57,714 nucleotides of DNA from Minisyncoccota bacterium (GTDB taxonomy: Bacteria; Patescibacteriota; Minisyncoccia; Phycocordibacterales; UBA9973), in NCBI GenBank assembly GCA_035299545.1, contig DATGWJ010000020.1:1-57714 (forward strand), written 5' to 3'. Of this stretch, positions 2,881 through 18,045 are shown one piece after another. The notes below the pieces were generated by a model. It searched no databases. It saw only the letters and a program-made list of their open reading frames with translations, and was not told the DNA's origin. The stretch's first letter is position 1. The number at the start of each line of letters is the position of its first letter. The translations under genes were made by a program, and so were the position numbers.

Positions 2881-3936
2881 ATGGTAATACAAGAAAATGT
2901 GGATATTAAAGGGTATTCTACTTTTAAAATAGGTGGGAAATTTAAATATTTTACAGAAGTAGAAAATATAAATGATATAAAGGAAGTTGTTTTGTTTGGA
3001 AAAGAAAAAAATACTCCCTTATTTATATTAGGTGGTGGATCAAATATTATTTTCTCAGACGGGGATTTAAATATTTTAGCCGTAAAGATGGAAATTAAAG
3101 GTTTTGAAATAATAAAAGATACAAATGAATACACTGACATAAAAATTGGTGCGGGTGAAAATTGGGATAAGATTGTAGAGAAAACTGTTTTTATGAATTT
3201 GTGTGGGTTTGAAGCATTGTCCGCAATACCAGGCACTGTGGGGGCAACACCAATACAAAATGTCGGAGCTTATGGAGCTGAAGTTAAAGATACTATTCTA
3301 GAAGTAGAAGCTTTTAATGTAAAACCTGCCAGCCATCCTTCGCAAGGCAATGCAGGCGGGGATAATAAAATTGAAATTCTTTCAAACGAGGATTGTAAAT
3401 TTGAGTATAGAGATAGTATTTTTAAACATGAAGCAAAAGGAAAATATATTATAATTTCTGTTACTTATCGGCTCTATAAAAAACGTCCTACAATACCAGA
3501 TTACCCAGGTGTCAAAAAGTATTTTATAGAAAACAATATAAATAATCCTAGTTTGAATGATATTCGTGAAGCTATTATTTATATTCGTAATGAGAAATTA
3601 CCAAATCCTAAAGATATACCAAATGTAGGGTCATTCTTCAAGAATCCAATAGTGGATAATAGTGTCGCGAGTAGCCTGAAAAAGAAATTTTCTAACGCAA
3701 AATTCTTTAAAGTTGATGAATATTTGACGAAAATTCCAGCAGGATGGCTTATTGAAAATGCAGGATTGAAAGGGAAATCTTTCGGGAAAGTTTCTATTTA
3801 TGACAAGAATGCCTTAGTTTTGGTAAATAAAGAAAATGCCACTTGTGCAGATGTTATATCTGCTCGAGATGAAATAATAAAAATAGTAAAAGAAAAATTC
3901 GGTATTACTCTAGAGCAAGAACCAGAAATAATATAG
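2881..3936 (+). CDS. murB: UDP-N-acetylmuramate dehydrogenase
   Basis: GGGSNI, IPGTVGATPIQNVGAYG, YRDSIFK, NVGSFFKNP, LEQEP. Confidence 0.96.
   Translation: MVIQENVDIKGYSTFKIGGKFKYFTEVENINDIKEVVLFGKEKNTPLFILGGGSNIIFSDGDLNILAVKMEIKGFEIIKDTNEYTDIKIGAGENWDKIVEKTVFMNLCGFEALSAIPGTVGATPIQNVGAYGAEVKDTILEVEAFNVKPASHPSQGNAGGDNKIEILSNEDCKFEYRDSIFKHEAKGKYIIISVTYRLYKKRPTIPDYPGVKKYFIENNINNPSLNDIREAIIYIRNEKLPNPKDIPNVGSFFKNPIVDNSVASSLKKKFSNAKFFKVDEYLTKIPAGWLIENAGLKGKSFGKVSIYDKNALVLVNKENATCADVISARDEIIKIVKEKFGITLEQEPEII
3325..3360 (+). repeat. 36-nt hairpin inserted in-frame in murB (PASHPSQGNAGG)
   Basis: CCTGCC...GGCGGG outer stem with inner CCTT-CGC-AAGG; exactly 12 codons; GC-rich in an AT-rich gene. 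Confidence 0.7.
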
Positions 3937-3947
3937 ATATAATTTTG

Positions 3948-4029
3948 TGCCGGAGGAGAGAATCGAACTCTCACCCCTTGCGAGACACGATTTTGAGTCG
4001 TGCGCGTCTACCAATTCCGCCACTCCGGC
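3948..4029 (-). tRNA. tRNA-Leu(CAA)
   Basis: Cloverleaf: acceptor GCCGGAG/CTCCGGC, anticodon arm CACGA-CTCAAAA-TCGTG, long variable arm; no encoded CCA. Confidence 0.96.
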
Positions 4030-4083
4030 AAACATATGGCTAGTATACCAAAAAATAATTAAAATGCTAGAATAAGCAAATAG

Positions 4084-5220
4084 ATGCAAGATAGAACCCC
4101 GCTTTCATATATACAGATTTCAAAAGAAAACTTGATACATAATATTAAGCAGTTTCGTGATTTACTGAAGGGGCAAACGAAAATTGTTGCTGTTATAAAG
4201 GCGAATGCTTACGGACATGGAGATATAGTTATTGCCCAAATTGCTAGTCCGTTTGTGGATTATTTCCAAGTGGATGATATTGAAGAATATGAAAGAATCA
4301 AAAGTGCCACCAAGAAACCAGTTCTTATCTTGGGGTATTTAAATGAAGAAGGAATAAAAAAAGCGATAAAAACAAAGGCAATAATTTCAGCTTTTGACCT
4401 AGTGCATCTTTTAAAAATAAATCATATTGCTTTATCTTTAAAAACAAAAGCGAAAGTTCACTTGGCTATCGATTCTTATCTAGGAAGAGAAGGAGTAATG
4501 CCATCACAAGTGGAAAATATTATTAAGGAAATTAAAAATTTAAAAAATATTGAACTTGATGGAGTATATTCACATTTTGCAAATATTGAGGACACAATGA
4601 ATTCTACTCATGCGAACAGACAGATAGATACATATCATAAATGTGTGGAAATTTTTAAGAAAAATGGTTTCCCAAAAATTAATACTCACATTTCTGCTAC
4701 ATCAGGAATACTTGTTTATGAGAAGGGGAATAATTTGCACAATTTAGCACGATTGGGAATTGGCCTCTATGGTATGTGGCCAAGTGAACACTTGGGATAT
4801 TTAAATAAAAAGAAAACAAACTTAAAGCCAGTATTAAAATGGATTACGCATGTAGCTCAGGTGAAAGTTCTACCAGCAAATCATCCTGTCGGTTATGGTC
4901 TTACTTATATTACAAAAAAAGCTACAAAAATAGCTGTCATTCCACAAGGTTACTCGGACGGAGTCCCTAGATCTTTATCAAATAATGGTGAAGTGTTAAT
5001 AAAAGGTAAGAGAGCCAAAATTATAGGAAGAGTCGCAATGAATATGATTGTAGTAGATGTCTCAAATATAAAAGATGTAGTGCCAGAAGATGAAGTTGTG
5101 ATATTGGGAAAACAGGGGAAGAATGAGATTACAGCAGAGCAGATTGCAAAAGAATCAGGCACTATAAATTACGAAGCAACGACACGCATAAATGCGTTAT
5201 TACCAAGAATCGTAATGTAA
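4084..5220 (+). CDS. alr: Alanine racemase
   Basis: VIKANAYGHG PLP-lysine motif, GVYSHFA, VGYG, GRVAMN. Confidence 0.96.
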   Translation: MQDRTPLSYIQISKENLIHNIKQFRDLLKGQTKIVAVIKANAYGHGDIVIAQIASPFVDYFQVDDIEEYERIKSATKKPVLILGYLNEEGIKKAIKTKAIISAFDLVHLLKINHIALSLKTKAKVHLAIDSYLGREGVMPSQVENIIKEIKNLKNIELDGVYSHFANIEDTMNSTHANRQIDTYHKCVEIFKKNGFPKINTHISATSGILVYEKGNNLHNLARLGIGLYGMWPSEHLGYLNKKKTNLKPVLKWITHVAQVKVLPANHPVGYGLTYITKKATKIAVIPQGYSDGVPRSLSNNGEVLIKGKRAKIIGRVAMNMIVVDVSNIKDVVPEDEVVILGKQGKNEITAEQIAKESGTINYEATTRINALLPRIVM

Positions 5221-5223
5221 AAC

Positions 5224-5332
5224 AAAAAGAATGGATATATTATTTTATTCCTCCTTAACCCCATTCCTCGCGATTACGCTCGGAACGGCACGCCCCCGCC
5301 CGTCGTCATAAAACAACATATCCATTCTTTTT
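5224..5332 (-). repeat. Divergent member of the dispersed hairpin element (copy 5)
   Basis: 25-bp outer stem (G.U-compatible on minus strand); core GACGACGGGCGGGGGCGTGCCG-hairpin-TGGGGTTAAGGAGG; 109 bp. Confidence 0.7.
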
Positions 5333-5350
5333 AAATACAAGTTTTTTAGA

Positions 5351-5454
5351 AAAAGAACATAATATTGAAAATTTCTGAGTAGGTGTGGGCGCGCCGGAGC
5401 GAGCTTGCGAGCGGAGAGGGATAAGCGAGGAAATTTTTAATACTATGTTCTTTT
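5351..5454 (+). repeat. Dispersed hairpin element, copy 2
   Basis: 26-bp outer stem; core GAGTAGGTGTGGGCGCGCCGGAGCGAGCTTGCGAGCGGAGAGGGATAAGCGAGG. Confidence 0.9.
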
Positions 5455-5467
5455 CAATTTTAACTAT

Positions 5468-5496
5468 TTGCTTTTTTAGATATTTTATAGTACTAT
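5468..5496 (+). promoter_or_regulatory. sigma70-type promoter of rpmG (TTGCTT-17-TACTAT), 6 nt before ATG
   Basis: Direct reading of -35/-10 spacing. Confidence 0.6.
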
Positions 5497-5502
5497 ACTC
5501 GC

Positions 5503-5661
5503 ATGTCACAAGATAGACTTTTCAAATTAGCCTGTACGAAATGCAAGCGCATTAACTATTGGTCAAGCAAGAACAAAAAGCTCGTTACTAGAAAAATTGA
5601 GCTTAATAAGTATTGCAAATGGTGCAAAATTAATACTAAACACAAAGAAGCCAAAAAATAA
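5503..5661 (+). CDS. rpmG: 50S ribosomal protein L33 (Zn-binding CxxC/CxxC form); not in the ORF track
   Basis: MSQDRLFKLACTKCKRINYWSSKNKKLVTRKIELNKYCKWCKINTKHKEAKK. Confidence 0.95.
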   Translation: MSQDRLFKLACTKCKRINYWSSKNKKLVTRKIELNKYCKWCKINTKHKEAKK

Positions 5662-5689
5662 AAATCCCCATTGGGGATTTTTATTTTTT
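5653..5689. terminator. Bidirectional intrinsic terminator between rpmG and tRNA-Trp
   Basis: 17-bp IR AAAAAATAAAAATCCCC/GGGGATTTTTATTTTTT, 3-nt loop. Confidence 0.85.
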
Positions 5690-5692
5690 CTG

Positions 5693-5763
5693 CGGGCGGT
5701 GGAGGAATCGAACCCCCACCAACGGTTTTGGAGACCGTTGTTCTACCACTAAACTAACCGCCC
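5693..5763 (-). tRNA. tRNA-Trp(CCA)
   Basis: Acceptor GGGCGGT/ACCGCCC, anticodon arm ACGGT-CTCCAAA-ACCGT, G73. Confidence 0.96.
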
Positions 5764-5780
5764 TGACAAAGACGAGTATA

Positions 5781-6710
5781 CTATAAATCCGCTTTATTTT
5801 CCAGCAGAAATTCTTTTATCTCTTTTAGTGCTTTTAACTTATCATTTTTTTCTCTTGGATCAATCCAGATAATACTTTTATCACGTTTAAACCACGTATT
5901 TTGTCGTTTGGCGAAATGCCAAATTTCAGCATTCAATTTTTTTAGCATTTCCTCTTTTGTTATTTTTTTCTGCAAATAAAGTGCTACATATTTATATTCA
6001 AGACCAAGAGAATACATTCTTTTCCAAGATAGCCCTTTTCTATGCAATTTCTCCACTTCGTAAACCATCCCTTTCTTCATGCGAGCAAATAAACGAAGGA
6101 GAATTCTTTCTTTTAAAATTTCTGGTGGCACTTTTAGTCCAATTTTCAGAAAGGAGGACGGTTCTCCGAAATGTTGCTTAGAACTATTCTTAATAGAAGG
6201 AACTTTGCCAAGTGATTTGGCTATTTCTATGGCGCGGATTAAGCGAACCTTATTATTTTTATCAATAGTTTTTGCACGAGTAGGATCTAGCTTTTTTAAC
6301 ATTTCAAAAAGTTGTTCTGTTGTTTTTTTAGATAAAGTCTCACGAATTTTTTTATTGGGTGGGACTTCAGGGAAAGTAGTATTATTAACTATCGCATCAA
6401 TATAGAAACCAGTACCACCGCAGACGATAGGCACTTTTCCTTTCTTCGCTATTTCTCCAATTTTTTTAAAAGCTATCTTTTGGAAATCACTTACCGAGAA
6501 AACTTTTGATGGGGAAGTGACATCAAGAAGATGATGTGGAACTCCAAGCATCTCTTTCTTTGTAATTTTCCCTGTCCCTATATTCATGCCTTTATAAACC
6601 TGACGGGAATCAGCAGAAATTATTTCTCCATTTATTTGGTGGGCCACTTCAACAGCGAAGTCACTTTTTCCAATAGCTGTTTGTCCTAAAATTACTATAA
6701 CTTTACTCAT
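5781..6710 (-). CDS. miaA: tRNA dimethylallyltransferase (start moved to ATG 6710)
   Basis: GQTAIGKS P-loop, DSRQVYKGMNIGTGK, GGTGFY, AKRQNTWF; TG-T-TAATAT 7 nt before ATG 6710. Confidence 0.96.
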   Translation of the reverse strand: MSKVIVILGQTAIGKSDFAVEVAHQINGEIISADSRQVYKGMNIGTGKITKKEMLGVPHHLLDVTSPSKVFSVSDFQKIAFKKIGEIAKKGKVPIVCGGTGFYIDAIVNNTTFPEVPPNKKIRETLSKKTTEQLFEMLKKLDPTRAKTIDKNNKVRLIRAIEIAKSLGKVPSIKNSSKQHFGEPSSFLKIGLKVPPEILKERILLRLFARMKKGMVYEVEKLHRKGLSWKRMYSLGLEYKYVALYLQKKITKEEMLKKLNAEIWHFAKRQNTWFKRDKSIIWIDPREKNDKLKALKEIKEFLLENKADL

Positions 6711-6854
6711 ATTTCGCATATTAACATATTTTATGATAAGATAGTGATTACTTGTCCCGTCAGAAATTCTAGATTAAGGGGCATAAAAATAATCGTAATT
6801 TATCAGAATAAATTAAATTCTTATACAAAAAATAATATAAGAATTTCATTCGGG

Positions 6855-7157
6855 ATGGGATTTAAATCATTTATTACAAAACAAGCTCTTCGCATGAAAG
6901 GGGTTTCCTCGGAGCAAGCAGAAAAAATAGCAAAACAATTGGATGAAAATCCAGAAATGGCAGAAAGCTTGAAAGCTCTTGAGGGGAACAAAGAGGTAAA
7001 AGAACTTTTTGAAAAAATTACGAAAGAAATAGAGGAAAAGAAAAAAAGCGGATTAGGAGAACAATATGCTGCTGTCCTTGTGATGAGTAAATATAAAGCA
7101 GAAATAGTTAAACACAAAGAAGCTCTCGCACCACTCATGAACCTCATGCAGAAGTAG
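6855..7157 (+). CDS. Hypothetical helical protein (~100 aa; likely start ATG 6855)
   Basis: MGFKSFITKQALRMKG...; charged helical composition; ends before a terminator. Confidence 0.6.
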   Translation: MGFKSFITKQALRMKGVSSEQAEKIAKQLDENPEMAESLKALEGNKEVKELFEKITKEIEEKKKSGLGEQYAAVLVMSKYKAEIVKHKEALAPLMNLMQK

Positions 7158-7176
7158 AAAGAGATATAAAAATTTA

Positions 7177-7200
7177 AAGGGGTAACTTGCGTTACCCCTT
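7177..7200. terminator. Hairpin between convergent genes
   Basis: AAGGGGTAAC-TTGC-GTTACCCCTT (GCAA tetraloop on minus strand). Confidence 0.8.
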
Positions 7201-7205
7201 GTGGT

Positions 7206-7496
7206 TTATACTTTGTTGATTTTCTTCAAATTAGTGGCAATTGTTTTAATAAGATCGGCTTTGTTACTTGGATTAAGCGTTGACATATCCATCTCACTAG
7301 GAAGACTACCTGAAAAATCCATATAATAAAAATCAGAAATTTTCTTGGCAATGTCAGGATAAATTCTGATTATTTCTTTTGAAATTTCCTCTATAGCCTT
7401 TTTTGTGATTATTGGTTGTTTACCTTCCTTTGTGTAGAGAGAGTAGACAGCGCTTCCATTGAAGCCAGTACTAAAAATGAACATTTCCTCTGCCAT
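7206..7496 (-). CDS. Hypothetical protein (96 aa)
   Basis: Open ORF with protein-like composition, ends at the terminator; no motif recognised. Confidence 0.6.
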   Translation of the reverse strand: MAEEMFIFSTGFNGSAVYSLYTKEGKQPIITKKAIEEISKEIIRIYPDIAKKISDFYYMDFSGSLPSEMDMSTLNPSNKADLIKTIATNLKKINKV

Positions 7497-7577
7497 TTTG
7501 AAAGAATTTTTAAGTTATTTTAAGAATATTATAATACTTTGCCTGTTAGCAAGCAATACCTCGTAATATAAGAGAAG

Positions 7578-7586
7578 TTATCCACA
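7578..7586 (+). promoter_or_regulatory. Consensus DnaA box upstream of the giant fibre gene
   Basis: TTATCCACA, intergenic; the 13-mer AAGTTATCCACAG recurs at 52070-52082. Confidence 0.45.
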
Positions 7587-7657
7587 GAAATACATGATAT
7601 TTATGATTTTTATGCTTATTTTATGGTATAATTTAATGGATTGATGTATTTCAAAGA

Positions 7658-10600
7658 ATGAAATTTATACGACATAAAAAAATAATTAAGATTCTTATTT
7701 CTGTTTTTTTAATATTCTCTTCTAGAATCGTTTTTGCCGTCTGGGATGGTTTGCCTTATAACCCCGGAGAAACAATAAATCCTGAATGTTTACCATCACA
7801 AACAGATTGTGACGTTCTTCCTTCTATTACAACGGAGTCAGATCCATCTTTCTTAGATTGGTTAATTTCTCCAGTATTCACTAGCTCAGCAACGACAAGA
7901 AGTATTATCCCTGAGACAAATGATACTTATACTCTTGGTTCTTTAGATAAAGTTTGGAAAGATTTATTCGTAGGAGCGGGATCTATCTATGTTAATGGAC
8001 AAAAAGTTTTGCAAACCGACCCAAACAATAGTGTTATTGTTTCTGCTGATGATACTCAAAATTTAATTTTCCAAACAACTGGTGGAGCAAATATAGAACT
8101 TAATCCTGCTAGTGGTGGTGGGAACATTCTTTTGAAAAGTAATGTCACTCTTACTGCTGGTAAAACTATTCGAACTTCCGATTTGTCCGCTATTAATTTT
8201 TCAGATGGTATAAATGCTGGTAACATTAAAGTTTCTGGAAATATTATTTCTTCCACTGATACAAACGGAGGAATATCAATTACTCCAAATGGATTGGGTA
8301 ACACTTATGTTACAAATGGTAACTTTGGAGTAGGCACAACATCAGGACTTTCAAAACTTTCTGTGAATGGCGGTCTTCATGTTGGCGGAGATAGCGACGC
8401 GGGAGATAATAATATTTTAGCTGACGGCACCATCACTGCTATTGGGAATATTTCTGGTGCCAATCTTTCTGGGACAAACACTGGCGACAACGCTGTTAAC
8501 TCTCTTTACTCTGGGCTTGCAACATCCAAACAAGATACACTAGTCTCAGGAACAAATATTAAAACAATAAATGGGAATACAGTTTTGGGAAGTGGAGATA
8601 TGTCTATAGGAACTTTCAATCTCCCTGCTTTAACAACTGGCTCTGTTCTTTTCTCTGATGGTTCTACAATTGCGCAAGACAATGCAAATCTTTTCTGGGA
8701 TGATGCAAATAATAGGTTAGGGATAGGGACAACGACTCCAGAATATCGATTACAAATTTCTGATGGAGCAAATGCTTTCTTGTCAGTAGATAGCACAACT
8801 TCACGAGTAAAAGTTGGAAAAAGTTCAGTTACAGCACCAACTAAAACTTTAGATGTTGCTGGAAATATGAATTTTAATGCTGTAGTTGCCCCAACTCTTG
8901 CACAAGTCACAAGTATTGGAGTGGCAGATGGTGGAGCAGGTAGTATTCCAGCAGGAACATATTACTATGGTGTAGAATTTTATACTTCTGATGGAGATAC
9001 AGGGGCAACATACTCCGCTGCTTCTTCTCCAACTATTACCTTATCTGGTCCTTCTAGAGTTAATTTAACTAATATCCCAACATCGACTGATCCTCGTGTT
9101 ATTGGAAGAAAAATTTACAGAAGCCAAGCTGGAACAGTGGGGGATTATTATTTTAGATATAAGATTGCTACAATTGCCGATAATACAACAACAACTTACC
9201 AAGATAATACTACGACTTATGATAGTAGTGATTGGGAGTATAATAAACAAAATACAACAGCAGGTCTTATTTATTACAACACTGGAAATGGTGTTCTTAC
9301 TAAGATGATGCAACTCACTTCCTATGTTACAGCAGCTGGTTCTAATGCATTAGGAAACTTAACTAGAGGGACCACCACGACAGCTTTTGGTTCTGGTGCT
9401 TTAGCGAATGTTACAACAGGAGATTCAAATATGGCTTTTGGTCATTCTGCTGGATTTAATGTTACAACAGGAGTAGCAAATGATTATTTTGGTTATGCTT
9501 CTGGTCTAGGAAACCAAACTGGAACAGGTAATAGTGCCTTTGGTGATAGTTCGCTACGTAATAATACAAATGCATCTTTTTCTGGAAACTCAGCATTTGG
9601 AGATGCTTCTTTATATGCTTTAGCCTCAGGAAATAATTATAACGTTGGAGTAGGATATTATGCTGGTAATGGAGCACAAGCAACGGGAGGAGTTTATCTT
9701 GGATACCAAGCTGGATATCAATCTGGTGGAGTTGGAACAGTAGGAGGTTACAACATAGTTCTAGGTGCTAATAGTGGAACTCTATTGGGTGCTGGGCTTA
9801 GAAATGTGTTAATTGGATATGATGTTGAATTAGCTACTCCTGCTACTAGTGATCAGTTAAATATCGGAAATATAATTTATGGAACAGGTCTAGGAACTGG
9901 TTCAACTCCATCTGCTACAGGAAAGGTTGGAATTGGCACTTCAACTCCAGGGCAGTTGTTGCATGTTAAAGATACAACAAGCGTAGCTACTCCTATGGTT
10001 ATGTTAGAGGGGTACAATCATGTTTTAGGATTAAAAGGACAAACACCATATGCTGAATATTTTAATCCATCTGGAACACGTCTTGGTTGGTTTGGTTATG
10101 GTATAAATGCTAATGATTTATATTTTTCTAATGATGTAGCTGGTAAGCCAATATATTTTGCCACAGATGGTTACACGAATCCTAGAATGACAATTCTAGG
10201 AACTAGCGGTAATGTTGGTATTGGAACAATAACCCCAGGAGAAAAATTAGAAGTAAGTGGTAGTAGTATTGGAGGAATTGTAAAAACAATAATTAGAAAT
10301 ACAGACCTTACAGATTCAGCTAGTGGAGCTGGAATTGTTCTTATCCCAACTACTGCTGGATGGGGTCCTGCGTTATATGCAACTAGAGGTGGATCAGGAG
10401 CTTTGTATTTTGGAACGACAAGTGCCGCAGGTGGTTCTGCTTTTGATTCAGATAAAGTAAGAATGGTTATTTCAAATATGGGGAATGTAGGTATTGGAAC
10501 AACAAGTCCAGTTTCTAATTTACAAGTTTCTCAATCAACAACAGGAGTTGGAACTGTCTCAAACTCTGCGGGTGGAACTACAGTGACCGGAGTTGGAACA

Positions 10601-13600
10601 CAATTCTTAAATACATTTAAAGTTGGAGACACTATCACAATCAACGGAGAGACTGTAACCATTTCTGCTATTGCAAGTAATACATCGATGACAACAGGAG
10701 CAATAACTAATGCCAATTCTGCTGTCGCATATACTCTGGTAGGAGGAGATAGATTTAGTGTAAAAGGAAATGGAAATGTGGGAATTGGAACTTCAACTCC
10801 TAGTTCTCCACTCGAAATATCTTATGCCAGTACTGGAGCGAGTGGTTCTACTGGTTTAGCTATTAATGCAAGTTCCGGTAATGATTCTATTGTCGGATTA
10901 AATGTTGCAGGAACACTTAGGGGTAAATTCCGTGCAGATGGGAATGGTCATTTTGTGATTAGTTCTACTGGCACCGGAGATATTTATTTCAGAGATGATG
11001 ATACTACCACTAATATGATAATTCTTGATAGTGGTAATGTTGGTATTGGAACAACAAGCCCACAATCTCAATTAGATATCCGAGGAGGAACTTCTAGTTT
11101 TGGTACATTGTTATTATCAAGAACACATCCTACTGTTATGGGAACAGATTTTAGATTGGGTTCTGTAAAATTTGGAGGAGAAGATGTAGATAGTGCTTTC
11201 AGCAACTGGAATACCGCTTCAATAAACGCAGAAATAGATTCGACCTGGACCAGTGCAACAGATACTCCAACAAGATTAACATTCTTAACTACACCTGATG
11301 CTTCTGGAACACCTTTAGAGAGAATGAGAATAGATAATGCGGGTAATGTTGGAATTGGAACAACTGCTCCAACATATAAATTAGATGTTAAGGGTACATC
11401 TGCTACTGGTAGTATACGTTCGGATATAGGTTTTGATATTTATCCAGTTCCAGATCCAACTTCGCCAACTGGTGTTGTGAGTGCTGGAGGAAGCGTGGAT
11501 GATGGAGCTCACTGGTATGGAGTAACATATGTTACTGCTATAGGAGAAACTCATGTAAGATATAGTGCAGCCCAGATTACAACAACTACTGGTAATAATA
11601 CTGTTACACTTACAATTCCTACTTCTGCAGACCAACGAGTTACATCAAGAAAAATTTATAGAACAAAAGCTGGTGCTCAGCAATATTACGAGTATTACTT
11701 AGCTACAGTAAATGATAACACTACAACAACATATGTAGATACTGCAGCGGATTCTTCATTAACTGGTTCAGCTGGAATTGTCTACTTTAAACCAAATACA
11801 ACTACAAAAAATATAACTCTAGCAGGGGCAAAAGCATTTACAATAGATTCCAATGCAACTTGGATAGGATTGAATGCTGGTTCCAATATAACAACTGGAG
11901 GTAGAAATACTTTAGTTGGAGTTGGTGCAGGGGCTGCTATAACAACTGGTTCTGATAACCAAGTTTTTGGACATAGTGCAGCAGGTAATATTACTTCTGG
12001 AGGTTCAAATGTGGTTATGGGTTATGGAGCGTTGTATTCTACAAATTCTGGTGGTAACAATACAGCAATTGGACACGACTCTCTTTTCTATAATCAAACT
12101 GGTTCTGGTAATACTGCTATCGGTTCATTCTCTTTATTTGGAACAGGAGGAGTAAATAGTCATAATTACAACACAGCTGTAGGATCTTATTCACTTAATG
12201 CTACTACTACTGGTGGATCTAATTCATCCCTTGGATATTATTCAATTAGAGGAAATACAACTGGAACACATAACTCTAGTCTTGGGTATTTTGCAGGACG
12301 ATATATTGCAGATGGAGTAACAGAAAATACCACAGGTGACTACAATGTCTTCATAGGCTCTAATACAAAACCTTTAGCGGATGATGACCAAAATGAAATT
12401 GTTATGGGGTACAACACAACTGGTAATGGAAGTAATACAGCAACAATCGGGAATAGCTCTATTGTTAGAACTTATTTAACAGGAGTAAATCTAAAAGCTG
12501 GTACAGCCACAGCAGGAACTGCTCCACTTAAATTTACTTCTGGTGCATTACTCACAGCTCCCGAAGCAGGATCAGTTGAATTCTTAAATGATGCATTTTA
12601 TGGAACTATTACAACCGGAGCAGAAAGAAAACAATTTGCATTCACTTCAGACTTAGCAGGATATGTTCCTTATACTGGAGGAACTTCAAATGTTGATATA
12701 GGGGCACACAACTTAATTGTCGATACTAGTACTTTATTTGCAGATGCCACAAATCACAGAGTAGGAATTGGTACAAATAGTCCATTTGCTACCTTAGATG
12801 TTCCTATTGGTACTACTTCTATGTTTGGATATATTGATTCTCCGTTTGTTTCTCTTGGAGAATACCAGAATTTCTTACTCTATACAGAAACTTTCTCTGA
12901 TGCCACATGGGTAAAGACAGATATAGGAACTGTTACAGCTGATTCAGCTACTGACCCAAGAGGTACAACAACTGCTGAAAATATTCCTGCAGGAAGTAGT
13001 GCAACCGCGAATGTAAGCCAAACTATAACAAACTCTACAACAGGAAGTTGGACATTTAGTGTTTACGCGAAAACTCAGTCTGGTACAGGTACGATAAAAC
13101 TAAAAATTGATTCAGATACAGAAACGGGTACAGAATTAACTGTAAATGTTGGTCCTACTTGGAAAAAATATTCAGTTACTCAAAATCTTGCTTCTGCTCA
13201 CACAACAAAAACAGTAAAAGTTATTAGTGGTACGACAGCTATTGCTTTATGGGCATCTCAGCTTGAACCTACAACTTTTGCAAGACCTTATTCTGGAGGA
13301 AGAACAACTACAGCTTTAACAGCATTAACAAGAACAACTCTAATACCATCTGCTTTATCTATATCTGGAGCTGTTACTGGTGTATCCACATTAACTATGG
13401 CGGGAGCCTTTACAGGAGCAACAACTGGAACTTTCTCAAGTAACTTATCTGTAGGTGGTAACTTAGATATAGGTACTACTCTTACAGCGGGAAGGTTGGC
13501 CATGGGCTCAGTTATTATTGGAGCAGATCCTTCTATCTCTCAAAATTCAAGCTTATATATAGCAGGAGGTGTTAGCGCATTTGCTAATCCGTCAGGGTCC

Positions 13601-15172
13601 ACTGTATTTGCAGATGACTTTACTGAAGCAGTGACAACAACTTTGGCAAGTCATACTCCTGTTGGCACAGGAACTTCTTGGACAATGTTAATACAAAATG
13701 GAACTGCAACATTAAGAGCGCAAAATACAGGGAAAGTTGATGTCACTGCTACGTTAGCAGATATGGGTGTCTTATATACAGCAGACGGCACATATACTTC
13801 CGCTGATTACGAAGTAAAAGTAACAGCTTCTGTGATAGATACTTCCGATGACGTTGCAATTATTGCAGCTCGTATTCAAGATGCAAATAATATGTATTTA
13901 TTTAAATTCTCTGGTACAGCAGCTAATAACGTTCTCTATAAGAGAGTTGCGGGAACATGGACAGTTCTAGGTACATCTACAATCGGAGTCACTGCTGGAA
14001 GTATTGTTAAATTACGTGTGACTGGTTCGACTATTACAGCATATCGAGGTGACACTCTTATGATTTCAGCAAGTGATTCAAGTATTACAAATGCTGGTAA
14101 AGCAGGCTTAGGAGCAGGAAATATTACTGTGTCCACAGACGATCCGGATACTACTTGGGATTTAGATGATTTTACTGTCACAAATTATGAGACATCTTTG
14201 AATTCAGCTATCTTTGCTACAGGTAACGTAGGTATCGGAAATACTAATCCTGGGTATGCTCTTCATATCGGAAGTGCTTCAGTTACTGATGCTACAACAT
14301 TGTTACGTCTTCAAGATGCTGATTCAACTTGTGACTTTAATGCGAATACTGGCGCTCCAACTTGCGGTTCTGATTTAACATTGAAGAAAAATATTATTAA
14401 CCAAGTAGATAATTTAAATAAAGTATTATCTCTCAGACCTGTCACATATAATTGGCTAACTGATGCGGACGGGGTTAATATAAAACATGGATTTATAGCT
14501 CAAGAAGTGGAAGAGATTATGCCAGAGCTTGTGACTGAGAGTAAATGGATTGATGGTTCTACGAAGAAATTCTTGCAGACAGCGGGTATGACACCATATA
14601 TTGTCGGAGCTATAAAAGAGATGAATTTGAAGATAGAAGGTATAAATAATTTTGAACTGGATGAAGAAGGTAATGAAATTAAGAATTCTTGGAGAGACAG
14701 CCTGTCTGCTTGGTTTGCAAATGCTGAGAATCGTATAACAAGAATATTTACTGGTGAAATTTGTATAACTGAACCAGGACAAGATCCTGTATGTCTAAAC
14801 AGAACAGAATTGCAGTCATTAAAATCTTTAATTAATGCAAGTTCTTCTACTACTATAATTAATACAAATAATACTAATATTGATACTACTACAGATACAA
14901 ATGTAGATAATACTACCGATGAGGATACAGACACAAACACTAATATAGATACAGGAGTAAATACAAACACTGATACTGATACGAGTATAAATATAGATAC
15001 AAGTACAGATACAACAGATAATACTAATGCGGATACAGTAACTGAAACAGATACAAATGTAGAAAATACAGACACAGACACAAGTGTAGAAAATACACCA
15101 ATAGTTGAAGGTCAAACAGAAAGTAGTGAAGAAAGTGAAGTTACAAATAATACCGATCAAACATCCCTATGA
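7658..15172 (+). CDS. Giant secreted tail-fibre-like adhesin with C-terminal peptidase S74 (intramolecular chaperone) domain
   Basis: Signal peptide; ~10 GNVGIGT repeats; NTA(V/I/F)G..AL repeat blocks; SDLTLKKNI...LRPVTYNW...GFIAQEVEEIMPELV; Thr/Asp/Asn-rich tail. Confidence 0.85.
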   Translation: MKFIRHKKIIKILISVFLIFSSRIVFAVWDGLPYNPGETINPECLPSQTDCDVLPSITTESDPSFLDWLISPVFTSSATTRSIIPETNDTYTLGSLDKVWKDLFVGAGSIYVNGQKVLQTDPNNSVIVSADDTQNLIFQTTGGANIELNPASGGGNILLKSNVTLTAGKTIRTSDLSAINFSDGINAGNIKVSGNIISSTDTNGGISITPNGLGNTYVTNGNFGVGTTSGLSKLSVNGGLHVGGDSDAGDNNILADGTITAIGNISGANLSGTNTGDNAVNSLYSGLATSKQDTLVSGTNIKTINGNTVLGSGDMSIGTFNLPALTTGSVLFSDGSTIAQDNANLFWDDANNRLGIGTTTPEYRLQISDGANAFLSVDSTTSRVKVGKSSVTAPTKTLDVAGNMNFNAVVAPTLAQVTSIGVADGGAGSIPAGTYYYGVEFYTSDGDTGATYSAASSPTITLSGPSRVNLTNIPTSTDPRVIGRKIYRSQAGTVGDYYFRYKIATIADNTTTTYQDNTTTYDSSDWEYNKQNTTAGLIYYNTGNGVLTKMMQLTSYVTAAGSNALGNLTRGTTTTAFGSGALANVTTGDSNMAFGHSAGFNVTTGVANDYFGYASGLGNQTGTGNSAFGDSSLRNNTNASFSGNSAFGDASLYALASGNNYNVGVGYYAGNGAQATGGVYLGYQAGYQSGGVGTVGGYNIVLGANSGTLLGAGLRNVLIGYDVELATPATSDQLNIGNIIYGTGLGTGSTPSATGKVGIGTSTPGQLLHVKDTTSVATPMVMLEGYNHVLGLKGQTPYAEYFNPSGTRLGWFGYGINANDLYFSNDVAGKPIYFATDGYTNPRMTILGTSGNVGIGTITPGEKLEVSGSSIGGIVKTIIRNTDLTDSASGAGIVLIPTTAGWGPALYATRGGSGALYFGTTSAAGGSAFDSDKVRMVISNMGNVGIGTTSPVSNLQVSQSTTGVGTVSNSAGGTTVTGVGTQFLNTFKVGDTITINGETVTISAIASNTSMTTGAITNANSAVAYTLVGGDRFSVKGNGNVGIGTSTPSSPLEISYASTGASGSTGLAINASSGNDSIVGLNVAGTLRGKFRADGNGHFVISSTGTGDIYFRDDDTTTNMIILDSGNVGIGTTSPQSQLDIRGGTSSFGTLLLSRTHPTVMGTDFRLGSVKFGGEDVDSAFSNWNTASINAEIDSTWTSATDTPTRLTFLTTPDASGTPLERMRIDNAGNVGIGTTAPTYKLDVKGTSATGSIRSDIGFDIYPVPDPTSPTGVVSAGGSVDDGAHWYGVTYVTAIGETHVRYSAAQITTTTGNNTVTLTIPTSADQRVTSRKIYRTKAGAQQYYEYYLATVNDNTTTTYVDTAADSSLTGSAGIVYFKPNTTTKNITLAGAKAFTIDSNATWIGLNAGSNITTGGRNTLVGVGAGAAITTGSDNQVFGHSAAGNITSGGSNVVMGYGALYSTNSGGNNTAIGHDSLFYNQTGSGNTAIGSFSLFGTGGVNSHNYNTAVGSYSLNATTTGGSNSSLGYYSIRGNTTGTHNSSLGYFAGRYIADGVTENTTGDYNVFIGSNTKPLADDDQNEIVMGYNTTGNGSNTATIGNSSIVRTYLTGVNLKAGTATAGTAPLKFTSGALLTAPEAGSVEFLNDAFYGTITTGAERKQFAFTSDLAGYVPYTGGTSNVDIGAHNLIVDTSTLFADATNHRVGIGTNSPFATLDVPIGTTSMFGYIDSPFVSLGEYQNFLLYTETFSDATWVKTDIGTVTADSATDPRGTTTAENIPAGSSATANVSQTITNSTTGSWTFSVYAKTQSGTGTIKLKIDSDTETGTELTVNVGPTWKKYSVTQNLASAHTTKTVKVISGTTAIALWASQLEPTTFARPYSGGRTTTALTALTRTTLIPSALSISGAVTGVSTLTMAGAFTGATTGTFSSNLSVGGNLDIGTTLTAGRLAMGSVIIGADPSISQNSSLYIAGGVSAFANPSGSTVFADDFTEAVTTTLASHTPVGTGTSWTMLIQNGTATLRAQNTGKVDVTATLADMGVLYTADGTYTSADYEVKVTASVIDTSDDVAIIAARIQDANNMYLFKFSGTAANNVLYKRVAGTWTVLGTSTIGVTAGSIVKLRVTGSTITAYRGDTLMISASDSSITNAGKAGLGAGNITVSTDDPDTTWDLDDFTVTNYETSLNSAIFATGNVGIGNTNPGYALHIGSASVTDATTLLRLQDADSTCDFNANTGAPTCGSDLTLKKNIINQVDNLNKVLSLRPVTYNWLTDADGVNIKHGFIAQEVEEIMPELVTESKWIDGSTKKFLQTAGMTPYIVGAIKEMNLKIEGINNFELDEEGNEIKNSWRDSLSAWFANAENRITRIFTGEICITEPGQDPVCLNRTELQSLKSLINASSSTTIINTNNTNIDTTTDTNVDNTTDEDTDTNTNIDTGVNTNTDTDTSINIDTSTDTTDNTNADTVTETDTNVENTDTDTSVENTPIVEGQTESSEESEVTNNTDQTSL

Positions 15173-16185
15173 TAAATATTAAAAAAATACTTTATTGTTT
15201 TTTAATATTGTTAACTATTTTCTTTGTAAAGAATTTTGTTCATGCTTCAACAGTAGATGGTACGATTTCTCCTTCTCCGAAGTATGCATTTGGTGAAAAA
15301 TTGGGGTGGATTAATTTTGGGTGTGATAATTGTAATGTTCATATTACAGATACAACTCTTACTGGTTATGCGTGGAGTAAAACTCACGGTTGGATAAATT
15401 TATCTCCAACTAATGGGGGAGTAACAAACAATTGTCTAGGGCAACTAGGGGGTAAAGCATGGTCAAAATCTCTTGGGTGGGTTGATTTTTCTGGTGTCAC
15501 TATAAATGCCTTAGGAAAATTCGAAGGAGTAGCAGGTACACCAGGGACTACAGCAGGAAGGGTAAGTTTTAATTGTGATAATTGTGATGTTTCCACGGAT
15601 TGGCTCCAATGTTCTCTGCGAGAATCTCCAGCTCAAGTTGTGATAAATAGAATATCAGATCAAACTGTTCCTTCTATTTCTGCAGATATTACTATATCCA
15701 ATGAGGGGTTAATTGATACAGAATATCAATACGAATGGTGTGTTGTGTCTGATATAACAAATGCTTGCGGAGGAGGGGATGATGTTTACTATGCTTCTGG
15801 AGCAAAGCTTATTGTGAGTGGGGCAGATTGGAACACAACAAAAACAGCAACTGTCCCAAATATAGGCAATTACTATTTTAAACTTGTAGTTCATTATGGA
15901 TCCAATTATTCTACAGCTTCGCAATTATTCACAGCATCAAACGAAGGCTCTTCATCTGGTGGAGGTGGAGGGGGGACTATCCCAATAAAAGTTACAAGTG
16001 TTTATGACATTGCAGATTTAAACAAAGATACAAAAGTTGATACGATTGACTTCTCAATAATGCTTTATTACTGGAAGAAAACAGGACCATTTTTAAATCC
16101 TTTAGTAGATATTAATAAAGATAATGTGGTTAACTCCGTTGACTTCTCAATCCTGCTTTCACGATGGGGAAATAATAGTATATGA
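15169..16185 (+). CDS. Secreted GWI-repeat protein with C-terminal dockerin domain
   Basis: Repeats GWINF/GYAWS..GWINL/GKAWS..GWVDF; Gly linker; duplicated Ca-loop motifs DLNKDTKVDTIDFSIML and DINKDNVVNSVDFSILL. Confidence 0.8.
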   Translation: MINIKKILYCFLILLTIFFVKNFVHASTVDGTISPSPKYAFGEKLGWINFGCDNCNVHITDTTLTGYAWSKTHGWINLSPTNGGVTNNCLGQLGGKAWSKSLGWVDFSGVTINALGKFEGVAGTPGTTAGRVSFNCDNCDVSTDWLQCSLRESPAQVVINRISDQTVPSISADITISNEGLIDTEYQYEWCVVSDITNACGGGDDVYYASGAKLIVSGADWNTTKTATVPNIGNYYFKLVVHYGSNYSTASQLFTASNEGSSSGGGGGGTIPIKVTSVYDIADLNKDTKVDTIDFSIMLYYWKKTGPFLNPLVDINKDNVVNSVDFSILLSRWGNNSI

Positions 16186-16793
16186 TAAAAAAAATAATTA
16201 AAAACATAAATTTTTCTTTTGTTGCTTTAGTGATAATTCTATCTTTTTTCACAGCTAGAGAATCTTTAGCTTATACGGAAGTTTATTTCCAAGCACCTGA
16301 AGATATTATTCAAAGCGGTGATACTTTTACAGTTCTATTAAAAATATCCTCAAAAGATAAAAAAATTAATGCTATAAATGGAACTATTCTTTACGATAAT
16401 CAATTTTTAAAAGTAAAAAGCATAAATAAAGATAATTCCATTCTTTCTTTGTGGGTTAAGGAACCTACCTATAATAATGAAGAAGGCAAAATAAGCTTAA
16501 TAGGAGGAAGCCCCGAAGGTTTTTTAGGTGAAGGAGGAGAAGTATTAAATATAACTTTCAAAGCAAAAAAAGGTGGTTTAACAAAAATTGGTTACGAAGA
16601 TGTGTTCTCTGTTTTTCTAAATGATGGTAAAGGGACACAGGTGAATCCTTGGTTAAAGCCAATGAATATTAAAATAGAAAATCTGCTTGGAAAGACAACT
16701 TATGCACTTTATACTCTGTCTGTTGTATTTATTTTAATTATTTTATTTATTATAATTAAAAGACGTAAGAAGAATAAAAAAGATGTCGCATAA
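16182..16793 (+). CDS. Cohesin-domain protein with C-terminal TM anchor
   Basis: GDTFTV...INAINGTILYD...SLWVKEP...ITFKAKKGG; C-term hydrophobic helix then KRRKKNKK. Confidence 0.8.
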   Translation: MIKKIIKNINFSFVALVIILSFFTARESLAYTEVYFQAPEDIIQSGDTFTVLLKISSKDKKINAINGTILYDNQFLKVKSINKDNSILSLWVKEPTYNNEEGKISLIGGSPEGFLGEGGEVLNITFKAKKGGLTKIGYEDVFSVFLNDGKGTQVNPWLKPMNIKIENLLGKTTYALYTLSVVFILIILFIIIKRRKKNKKDVA

Positions 16794-18045
16794 TTTTTTT
16801 AAAAATTTAGTTCTAAAGATATTTACGATATTCGTGGTGTCATTTTTCTTATTCGCTCCATCGCGATTATTTGCAGCAAGTTTGTCTATTCTACCAAACC
16901 CCTCAAATATTTCTACTGGTGGAACTACCGTAATGAAAGTTTATGTTAACACTGAAGGTAAATCTATTAATAATGCGGAAGCTGTAATTCAATTCCCAGT
17001 CGATACTCTTCAGGTTGTTTCTATATCAAAAAGTTCATCAATCTTTTCTTTGTGGGTAGAGGAGCCATCTTTTTCAAATATTACAGGTAAAATAAATTTC
17101 AATGGAGGTATCCCAACTCCGGGGTACATTGGAAGTAATGGTTATATCGCATCTATAACTTTCAAGGCAAAAACTGCAGGAGTAGCCCCGATTATCTTCT
17201 TAAGTGGAGCTGTTAGAGAAAATGATGGATTAGGCACAGATATTTTAACTTCTAAGAAAGGAAGTATGATAAATGTCTCTGCCCCTAAGCCAAAAGATAC
17301 AGTAAAGAAAGTTGAGCCAAAAGAAACTGTAGAAAAGAAAGAAGTAGTCGTTGAAGCATTTAAGCCATCAATAAGATTCTTTAGTAACCAAGGAATAGTA
17401 AAATTAGGAGACAACACAACAATTCCTAATACCGACTATTATTCTATTTCTGTGGATGATAATTTGGGTCTTAAGATTGAGACCGACCAACTCCTCGATG
17501 GTGAGTATTATCTTCCTATCTTAGAAGAAGGAGTTCATACTGTAAATATTATATCTTTTGAAAAAAACGGAAAATATAAAGAATCTGTCTTAACATTCAT
17601 GAGTCCACCAGTAATTCCTCCAACTCTTTCATTACAAGCTTATGTTATACCAAAGGGTGACTCTGCAATTATAGAAGGTAAGACAGATTATCCTAGAACA
17701 ACAGTCAATGTAATATTGGAATTAGAAGGCGAAGAAATCGGTAGATATACTCAACAAACGAGAGCTGATGGATCATTCACAGTGAATACAGATCCTATTA
17801 AAAAATCTGGATTAGTAAATATTTGGTCAGAAAATATTGTATCAGAAAATGTGAAAAGTCATCCTTCTGAAAGAATTTATTTGAAAGTTAACGAGCCAAA
17901 AGTTGTTAGGGTAACACTTTCACTTATTTATCCTGTTGTGTTTGTTATGGTTACTCTTATTGCTTTCGCTTTACTGGTTCTAATCTTAGTTTTGATTTGG
18001 CGAAAAATATTCAGACTAAAAGAGACTTCAAAGAATAGAATATGA
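16783..18045 (+). CDS. Cohesin plus Ig-like domain protein with C-terminal TM anchor
   Basis: INNAEAVIQFP...SLWVEEP...ITFKAKTAG; Ig-like IEGKTDYPRTTV...ADGSF; C-term TM. Confidence 0.8.
   Translation: MSHNFFKNLVLKIFTIFVVSFFLFAPSRLFAASLSILPNPSNISTGGTTVMKVYVNTEGKSINNAEAVIQFPVDTLQVVSISKSSSIFSLWVEEPSFSNITGKINFNGGIPTPGYIGSNGYIASITFKAKTAGVAPIIFLSGAVRENDGLGTDILTSKKGSMINVSAPKPKDTVKKVEPKETVEKKEVVVEAFKPSIRFFSNQGIVKLGDNTTIPNTDYYSISVDDNLGLKIETDQLLDGEYYLPILEEGVHTVNIISFEKNGKYKESVLTFMSPPVIPPTLSLQAYVIPKGDSAIIEGKTDYPRTTVNVILELEGEEIGRYTQQTRADGSFTVNTDPIKKSGLVNIWSENIVSENVKSHPSERIYLKVNEPKVVRVTLSLIYPVVFVMVTLIAFALLVLILVLIWRKIFRLKETSKNRI

Follow-up and report, generated by a model that had tools for sequence, protein, structure and literature searches.

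How Patescibacteria in the Candidate Phyla Radiation (CPR), with genomes below 1 Mb, construct their cell-contact structures is poorly understood. Accounts of these bacteria frequently mention phage-like fibres and giant surface proteins, and their mode of mounting is seldom addressed. Here we ask this question of an operon at positions 7658-18045 of a 57,714-nt contig (DATGWJ010000020.1, C20 in our numbering; the whole contig is referred to as the window) from a Minisyncoccota bacterium, whose assembly comprises 746 kb in 33 contigs with a completeness of 95.8%. Four open reading frames (ORFs), all on the forward strand, encode in order a giant fibre with a Peptidase_S74 domain (P0001), a secreted protein with a C-terminal dockerin (P0002) and two cohesin proteins (P0003 and P0004). 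What holds the fibre at the cell? On balance we lean towards the four genes specifying one surface assembly, made of cohesin anchors, a dockerin adaptor and the S74 fibre. The evidence that carries this reading is the confinement of the genome's dockerin and cohesins to this operon, the recurrence of the same gene set across the phylum, and the association of S74 fibres with the N-terminal domain of the adaptor, which we call the GWI domain after its repeats.

The operon and its products

Consecutive genes of the operon overlap by 4 nt (ATGA), 4 nt (ATGA) and 11 nt, and together with the ORF coordinates these overlaps agree with a preliminary description of this DNA, which had seen an overlapping, co-directional four-gene operon. 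The translational coupling between fibre and adaptor is retained in a same-genus relative (G008). In whole-genome hidden Markov model (HMM) searches, a single dockerin and a pair of cohesins were detected, and every one of them is encoded within the operon.

The fibre gene P0001 (7658..15172, 2504 aa) was analyzed by its ORF and translation and by Pfam and PHROG searches. Its product is laid out as a signal peptide, an N-terminal Cys motif, a shaft, an S74 chaperone, a Cys-Cys module and a low-complexity tail. Direct reading of the translation places the signal peptide at aa 1-27 (...RIVFA|VW, 7658..7738). Because 11/11 N-complete orthologues retain Ala at -1 and a small residue at -3, the signal peptide is probably cut by signal peptidase I after Ala27. 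Directly after it lies a conserved motif, WDGLPYNPGETINPECLPSQTDCDV (aa 29-53, 7742..7816), which contains Cys44 and Cys51 and was delimited by alignment and regular-expression scans; its pattern is W-[DNS]-[GN]-x-[PS]-[YF]-x-P-G-x3-N-P-[ED]-C-L-P-[ST]-x3-C-D-V. We propose this N-motif as the docking site for the GWI domain. The shaft is long and rich in Gly, Thr and Ser, the repeat G(N/K)(V/I)G(I/V)G occurs in it seven times, and P0001 matches the tail-fibre (4e-12) and tail-spike (8e-7) families of PHROG. No enzyme domain was detected in P0001 with Pfam or PHROGs, and PDB sequence searches with the fibre N-terminus and the fibre C-terminus gave no useful relative.

The Peptidase_S74 intramolecular chaperone domain (PF13884; aa 2238-2293, 14369..14536) was found by Pfam, at 54.1 bits against a cut-off of 22, and by the whole-genome HMM search. 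It opens with S2238-D-L-T-L-K2243 (14369-14386), which fits the SDxxxK (Ser-x5-Lys) catalytic motif described for S74 chaperones (PMC10769870) and is intact, so that P0001 probably self-cleaves at Ser2238. Further downstream, alignment of fibre C-termini revealed a conserved Cys-x9-Cys module (14756-14812), and the translation ends in a Thr/Asp/Asn-rich low-complexity tail (14843-15169); module and tail (14756..15169) would probably leave together with the chaperone. P0001 has only six Cys in its 2504 residues, arranged as three tight pairs, all three of which recur in the majority of orthologues. The translation contains neither a C-terminal transmembrane (TM) helix nor an LPXTG/sortase signal, and the giant S74 fibre without a visible membrane anchor of the preliminary description is confirmed on both counts.

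The genome encodes a second S74 fibre on contig C12 (locus L121, 8786-10816, reverse strand), the N-terminus of which is cut at the contig end. It carries a segment resembling SGNH/GDSL esterases (GDSTSA...GLNDL). Downstream of it, also on the reverse strand, are two paralogues of 930 and 818 aa (5968-8760 and 3453-5909), which combine beta-helix-like repeats with an N-terminal repeat of a peptidoglycan-binding-like type.

The adaptor gene P0002 (15169..16185, 338 aa) was characterized by its ORF, Pfam and an AlphaFold2 model. Behind a signal-peptide-like N-terminus it encodes a GWI-repeat beta domain (15247-15618), an immunoglobulin (Ig)-like middle domain (15619-15954), a disordered Gly-rich linker (15955-15999) and a two-loop dockerin (16000-16182). 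Dockerin_1 (PF00404) matches aa 282-329 at 30.2 bits against a cut-off of 22.9, and at 32.3 bits in the whole-genome search. Behind each of the EF-hand-like loops, DLNKDTKVDTID and DINKDNVVNSVD, comes a helix of nearly the same sequence, DFSI(M/L)L..W, and both dockerin segments are conserved across 53 P0002 orthologues. In the GWI region the repeat (Y)AWS..GWI(N/D)F recurs three to four times, and the domain has conserved Trp/Gly repeats and Cys pairs. The HMM match, the N-terminus, the repeats and the two loops thus all bear out the secreted GWI-repeat protein with a two-loop dockerin that had been described from the sequence. P0002 is modular, and about 70 full-length GWI-Ig-dockerin orthologues (327-379 aa) are present in public data.

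The AlphaFold2 model of P0002, built on the 53-orthologue alignment, has a mean predicted local distance difference test (pLDDT) score of 87.9, with values >90 over the GWI domain. It shows two beta domains at aa 31-143 (GWI) and aa 155-257 (an Ig-like sandwich), a Gly linker of low confidence at aa 263-277, and helices at aa 292-300 and 323-331. When the GWI domain was modelled alone, from 12 aligned sequences, the quality was low (pLDDT 60.4), and a PDB search with this model returned no significant match (best E 1.4). NCBIfam and PHROGs returned no match for genes 2-4 of the operon.

The small cohesin protein P0003 (16182..16793, 203 aa) starts with a signal-peptide-like segment, followed by a cohesin domain (16272-16676), a C-terminal TM helix (16701-16757) and a KRRKKNKK tail. 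Its cohesin domain was matched by Pfam Cohesin (PF00963) at aa 44-144 with 43.8 bits against a cut-off of 24.1. The large cohesin protein P0004 (16783..18045, 420 aa) was assigned by its identity to P0003, the HMM and its relatives. It is laid out as a signal peptide, a divergent cohesin domain (16876-17286), a K/E/P-rich linker, a stalk of ~200 aa and a C-terminal TM helix (17923-18000) with a basic K/R-rich tail. Because its first 155 residues are 34% identical to the P0003 cohesin (E 5e-15) and the protein is 43-44% identical to large cohesins of other families, stalk included, P0004 is, judged by homology, a second and more divergent cohesin carried on a stalk. Two cohesin proteins with C-terminal TM anchors had been predicted, and both were recovered, P0003 by Pfam and P0004 by its homology to P0003, each ending in a hydrophobic helix and a basic tail.

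Recurrence of the cassette and of the fibre-GWI pair

We next consider how often this arrangement occurs in other genomes. An alignment of large cohesins was searched against one genome per species, giving 154 relatives, and 80 loci were fetched with 10-kb flanks, the first in-frame start codon being taken as the start of each ORF. A domain scan of the fetched and other loci found a triad of genes in 78 loci: a cargo-Ig-dockerin gene, a small cohesin-TM gene and a large cohesin-stalk-TM gene. The two junctions of the triad are overlapping or have gaps of <=15 nt in 69/78 and 75/78 loci, respectively, and most loci that lack one of the three genes end at a contig edge. The three genes co-occur in Patescibacteria, and synteny in CPR, which had been suggested as a way to check the preliminary description, is in its favor. 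P0004-type cohesins are found in 67/401 genomes sampled across the phylum (62/320 genera), many of them outside the class of the window, and there are relatives that keep the locus at the same place, between miaA and ychF. The record names of the fetched loci include Paceibacterota, Nomura-, Zambryski-, Falkow-, Wolfe-, Niyogi-, Doudnabacteria and the like, plus generic labels of metagenome-assembled genomes. For many cassette records the title reads 'uncultured Candidatus Saccharibacteria' or even 'Gammaproteobacteria', which is probably a matter of unreliable labelling and not of a wider host range.

The cargo varies. Complete dockerin carriers range from 327 to 5194 aa, and many others exceed 3000 aa and are interrupted by the 10-kb flank limit. 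An Ig-like domain stands N-terminal to the dockerin in 68/73 loci. Since the same Ig-dockerin module terminates FN3- or MG2-rich surface proteins of 738-5194 aa in relatives (13 FN3 domains in the 5194-aa carrier, MG2 domains in an 837-aa carrier), it is apparently a general C-terminal tether for large surface proteins. The genome's single dockerin and two cohesins share one operon, and the triad recurs across the phylum; for these reasons the cohesin-dockerin set is supported as a dedicated, phylum-wide, non-enzymatic anchoring cassette with exchangeable cargo.

Two loci deserve separate mention. At locus L107 (1-11029) a single pair of small and large cohesins lies between two dockerin proteins, with an MG2-dockerin carrier upstream of the cohesins and an S74 fibre plus GWI-dockerin adaptor downstream, right before ychF; two cargos may thus be able to share a single pair of sockets. 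At locus L084 (6790-9387, forward strand) one 865-aa ORF holds both cohesins (aa 25-161 and 318-456), which is either a natural fusion of small and large cohesins or a frame error of the assembly.

Fibres are associated with one type of cargo. All of the GWI-dockerin loci examined (13/13) have an adjacent fibre, and they do so in two gene orders: the fibre is directly upstream in nine (the window, the same-genus G008/L016, L027, L028, L105, L107, L108, L109, and L110) and directly downstream of the cohesins in four (L034, L035, L104, and L106). The fibres at these loci range from 754 to 2504 aa. The N-motif is present in 11/11 N-complete fibres beside GWI-dockerin genes, and a regular-expression scan found it in 0/80 cassette loci with other cargo. 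Likewise, an HMM of the fibre C-terminus matched 6/6 GWI loci versus 0/80 other-cargo loci in 1.16 Mb (Fisher 2e-9, ignoring kinship). The S74 chaperone caps 12/13 fibres, and the one at L109 has a different C-terminal cap. A Cys-x(2-9)-Cys module stands behind the cap in most fibres, with L027 lacking it, and a low-complexity tail follows. The L109 fibre (5292-9209, forward strand) has the N-motif and no S74 domain; its cap contains the sequence GADYAEYF, which we take to resemble an intramolecular chaperone of the Peptidase_G2 type, and at this locus the fibre and adaptor genes are separated by a gene for a 248-aa TM protein.

The association extends to GWI proteins that have no dockerin. 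These are 250-1337 aa long (the smallest 250 and 285 aa), and most of them have their own predicted TM segments. In order-level loci of this kind an S74/GNVGIG-type fibre is adjacent in 8/10, directly upstream in L112, L115, L116, L118, L119, and L120 and downstream in L113 and L114. The fibres beside these direct-anchored GWI proteins carry a related N-motif, PGE(T/I)L(N/D)PxC.PG...C.V. At the class level the GWI domain was found in 67/401 genomes, and among the best 15 loci an S74/GNVGIG-type fibre is adjacent in 11. We also considered covariation of N-motif type with GWI type at the class level and dropped it, since a TM-type GWI (L153) is paired with a dockerin-type N-motif.

A further link comes from a C-terminal multi-pass membrane module of ~360 aa. 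The direct-anchored GWI protein of L112 and the large cohesin of L105, which belongs to a GWI-dockerin cassette, share this module with 41% identity (E 3e-87). Thus, where one lineage has GWI fused to the membrane module, the counterpart in another is a pair of proteins, GWI-Ig-dockerin and cohesin-stalk-membrane module. The shared module suggests a fusion/fission link in which the cohesin-dockerin joint stands in for a covalent one. Because L112 and L105 share it, we also take it to suggest that the adaptor dockerin pairs with the large cohesin and that the task of the GWI domain needs membrane fixation. The module is found behind a cohesin or GWI at L105 (3898-6087), L112 (10014-11864), L013 (259-2097), L113 (1243-3054), and L116 (9673-12975); several TM segments alternate in it with CarboxypepD_reg-like beta domains, and it contains the motif WGTVYDSVTKQPLDP.

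Taken together, the gene neighborhoods (13/13 versus 0/80), the direct-anchored GWI proteins beside fibres and the shared membrane module support the small dockerin protein behaving as an adaptor tied to the fibre. The preliminary description had assigned it this tethering role, and comparative genomics now argues for it. It had also placed the GWI contact at the fibre termini, which can be narrowed to one end: because S74 probably cuts the C-terminus off, the conserved N-terminal motif and not the C-terminus is the likely contact.

Proposed assembly and alternative explanations

We propose the following model. P0003 and P0004 would be type-I membrane proteins that display their N-terminal cohesins outside the cell, the P0003 cohesin near the membrane and the P0004 cohesin raised on its ~200-residue stalk. 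The fibre would be exported and its signal peptide probably removed after Ala27, thus exposing the N-motif. It most likely trimerises, steered by the C-terminal S74 chaperone, and S74 then probably cleaves at Ser2238, so that the chaperone is released along with the Cys-Cys module and the acidic/Thr-rich tail, and the distal tip is exposed. The GWI domain of the adaptor would grip the fibre base, probably through the 25-residue Cys motif, and its Ca-loop dockerin would plug into one or both membrane cohesins. This would give a long filament, similar to a phage tail fibre, with a non-covalent tether to the membrane; its most plausible use would be to bind a surface or another cell. The binding steps, trimerisation and self-cleavage are drawn from knowledge of the families and from gene context. 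By analogy with phage fibres and with the mosaic adhesive trimeric (MAT) fibres of Bdellovibrio we infer an adhesive role toward another cell; the host attachment and episymbiosis of the preliminary description are likewise inferences.

Several points weigh against this model. The dockerin-cohesin and GWI-fibre contacts are deduced from genes and their context, and adjacency can stem from co-regulation instead of contact. The surveyed loci are phylogenetically related, and the counts overstate their independence. No recognisable fibre was seen near 4 of the 15 best GWI loci at the class level, nor near the majority of weaker matches, and the S74 fibre on contig C12 is without a known GWI partner. 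The S74, dockerin and P0003 cohesin domains exceed their HMM cut-offs, as the preliminary description would have it, and the P0004 cohesin falls just below (22.5 bits against the Pfam cut-off of 24.1). Foldseek searches of the full-length P0002 model against PDB and BFVD gave matches to the Ig-like domain only, none of them informative for GWI. The fibre signal peptide might stay uncleaved and itself anchor the fibre. With the assembly at 95.8% completeness another dockerin could be hidden. The model also has two cohesins for one dockerin; they might serve two display heights, the engagement of several adaptors by one trimeric fibre, or further cargo as seen at L107.

Other explanations can be weighed against the same data. 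The one that survives best, which we regard as unlikely, holds that the cohesin-dockerin anchor is real and has the GWI-Ig-dockerin protein as its cargo, for instance a wall-binding or lectin-like module. The fibre would then have a mount of its own, through another partner or a signal anchor left uncleaved, and adjacency would reflect co-expression of surface components alone. The Trp/Gly repeats and Cys pairs of GWI do resemble many carbohydrate- or wall-binding repeats, other cassettes bear unrelated cargo directly on the dockerin, and part of the GWI loci have no detectable fibre. However, the 13/13 adjacency in two gene orders versus 0/80 with other cargo speaks for a specific partnership, which persists where GWI has its own TM anchor; in addition, the fibre-specific N-motif is conserved although the shafts range from 754 to 2504 aa.

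We give less credit still to the GWI protein as a helper of fibre assembly or export, i.e., a membrane-tethered extracellular chaperone or platform at work only during folding and trimerisation and no lasting anchor, from which the finished fibre is released or passed to another structure. Phage fibre genes commonly have assembly-factor genes next downstream, ATGA coupling would match synthesis of the fibre to that of the GWI protein, and the GWI protein is always membrane-tethered, i.e., placed where secretion happens. Yet the fibres already own an intramolecular chaperone, of the S74 or another type, and a transient role has no obvious need for a stalked, non-covalent socket conserved throughout the phylum.

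It is also improbable, in our estimate, that the fibre is a secreted free agent such as a depolymerase or a bacteriocin-like trimer, functionally unrelated to the cohesin-dockerin cassette. P0001 itself is without an anchor, and the C12 fibre with its SGNH-esterase-like segment and its peptidoglycan-binding beta-helix neighbors suggests enzymatic fibres in the genome. Against this, no enzyme domain was detected in P0001, the statistical association with GWI is specific, and the translational coupling to the adaptor is kept in G008.

Finally, a prophage or tailocin remnant next to the cassette by chance, as the PHROG tail-fibre and tail-spike matches and the S74 domain could suggest, is hardly credible and was rejected, since the flanks are housekeeping genes, no structural or lysis genes of a phage adjoin the fibre, its signal peptide is of the Sec type and the miaA-ychF position is kept in relatives.

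These flanks comprise alanine racemase (alr), miaA, ychF, a Sua5/TsaC-like gene and leuS, and no capsid, tail, terminase or integrase genes were found among them. A possible extended -10 promoter element, TGGTATAAT (7624..7632, forward strand), was read from the sequence 25 nt 5' of the fibre start codon; it is kept as a candidate because the promoter/terminator consensus scan found sites no more commonly than in shuffled sequence. Two small unannotated ORFs upstream of the fibre gene (6744-7157, forward; 7206-7496, reverse) flank a GC-rich hairpin with 10 perfect bp, AAGGGGTAAC-TTGC-GTTACCCCTT (7177-7200), that looks like a bidirectional terminator. Downstream of the operon, the leucyl-tRNA synthetase ORF (20836-23679, forward strand, 947 aa) has a NUDIX match (PF00293, 44.1 bits) at aa 388-506, an unusual insertion that lies inside the synthetase, past the editing domain.

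Significance and comparison with known systems

Literature searches on cohesins and dockerins in CPR, Patescibacteria and Parcubacteria yielded passing mentions only. No published description of the three-gene cassette, the GWI domain or the link between GWI and S74 fibres was found in the searchable literature, and the Pam-pilus preprint mentions neither cohesin nor dockerin. As far as this literature goes, the operon is an undescribed non-cellulosomal use of cohesin-dockerin anchoring. It would extend cohesin-dockerin biology from enzyme scaffolding to the mounting of adhesive fibres, and the arrangement suggests how ultra-small cells mount fibres possibly used to grip other cells. The locus and its relatives provide a testable wiring, from the fibre N-motif to GWI, from the Ig-dockerin to the cohesin and from the cohesin to the membrane, with parts small and soluble enough for expression and assay. 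The apparent swap of a covalent linker for a plug-and-socket joint, as a natural case, is also relevant to protein engineering.

A broader idea is offered tentatively, as something we consider possible and would not presume. GWI may be a 'fibre socket', that is, a surface receptor for the N-terminal base of chromosomal, phage-derived trimeric fibres, and thus a candidate for the surface partner still missing for MAT-like fibres. In Patescibacteria the mount would be modular, with GWI either fused to the multi-pass membrane module or split off by a cohesin-dockerin joint, and with fibres, giant FN3 adhesins and MG2 proteins exchangeable on membrane sockets of two heights.

Cohesin-dockerin pairing is the assembly code of cellulosomes, in which a multi-cohesin scaffoldin gathers many dockerin-bearing carbohydrate-active enzymes, usually with a carbohydrate-binding module (CBM). 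The preliminary description had called the operon a cellulosome-like assembly without glycoside hydrolases. The second half of this phrase holds, in that Pfam detected neither glycoside hydrolase nor CBM domains in the four proteins; of the first half, the cohesin-dockerin joint remains. A classical cellulosome was rejected, since the genome has one dockerin, two single-cohesin proteins and no scaffoldin, and the operon encodes no such enzymes. In common with cellulosome anchoring of the Acetivibrio/Clostridium thermocellum type, there is a C-terminal two-loop dockerin, there are PF00963 cohesins on cell-bound proteins, and the plug and socket would be extracellular and non-covalent. In contrast, the cohesins here are anchored by C-terminal TM helices and not by SLH domains or sortase, and the place of the cargo is taken by a fibre adaptor, or by giant FN3/MG2 surface proteins in relatives. 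The operon cohesins are also very distant in sequence from solved cohesins (the PDB search gave no useful relative, best E 0.23). The Ig-like module before the dockerin is reminiscent of the X module in the type II X-dockerin dyad. There, X packs rigidly on the dockerin and contributes to cohesin binding, whereas the Ig module of P0002 is split from the dockerin by the flexible Gly linker, as modeled with low confidence by AlphaFold2.

Cohesin and dockerin modules outside cellulosomes have been reviewed (Peer et al., 2009, as cited in PMC10066038), and dockerins on giant Omnitrophota proteins have been proposed to act as adhesins (PMC10066038). In the Saccharibacterium Southlakia epibionticum, the dockerin-domain protein SEML1_0315 was reported to be essential (Wang et al., 2023, PMC10633639). 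It resembles P0002 as a dockerin-bearing CPR envelope protein and is discussed in connection with host-cell adhesion; it comes from another class, PMC10633639 names neither a cohesin partner nor an operon for it, and the likeness is one of description.

The fibre itself can be compared with phage tail fibres and tailspikes that have a C-terminal chaperone (endosialidase K1F, T5 pb1), with which it shares S74, repeats of the G-N-V-G-I-G type and PHROG similarity. Phage tail fibres attach by their N-terminus to an adaptor or baseplate protein. Here there is no phage context, a signal peptide is present, and the proposed 'baseplate' would be the membrane-tethered cohesin-dockerin assembly.

The closest parallel in design is with the MAT fibres of Bdellovibrio bacteriovorus, which are displayed on the surface and include an S74 subgroup that self-cleaves at SDxxxK (Caulton et al., 2024, PMC10769870). 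Both kinds of fibre are chromosomal, Sec-secreted and phage-tail-fibre-like with an S74 end containing SDxxxK, both have a conserved N-terminal region right after the signal peptide and variable distal parts, and the proposed orientation is the same, with the N-terminus at the cell and the tip outward. The setting differs, the fibre of this operon belonging to a monoderm-like CPR bacterium. The MAT N-terminal domain is ~130 aa and beta-rich, in contrast to the ~25-35-aa Cys-pair motif found here, and the two are compared by architecture alone. For MAT fibres, the conserved N-terminal domain has been suggested to bind a still missing partner on the cell surface (PMC10769870), whereas the operon encodes a specific candidate for this part, the GWI domain, right beside the fibre.

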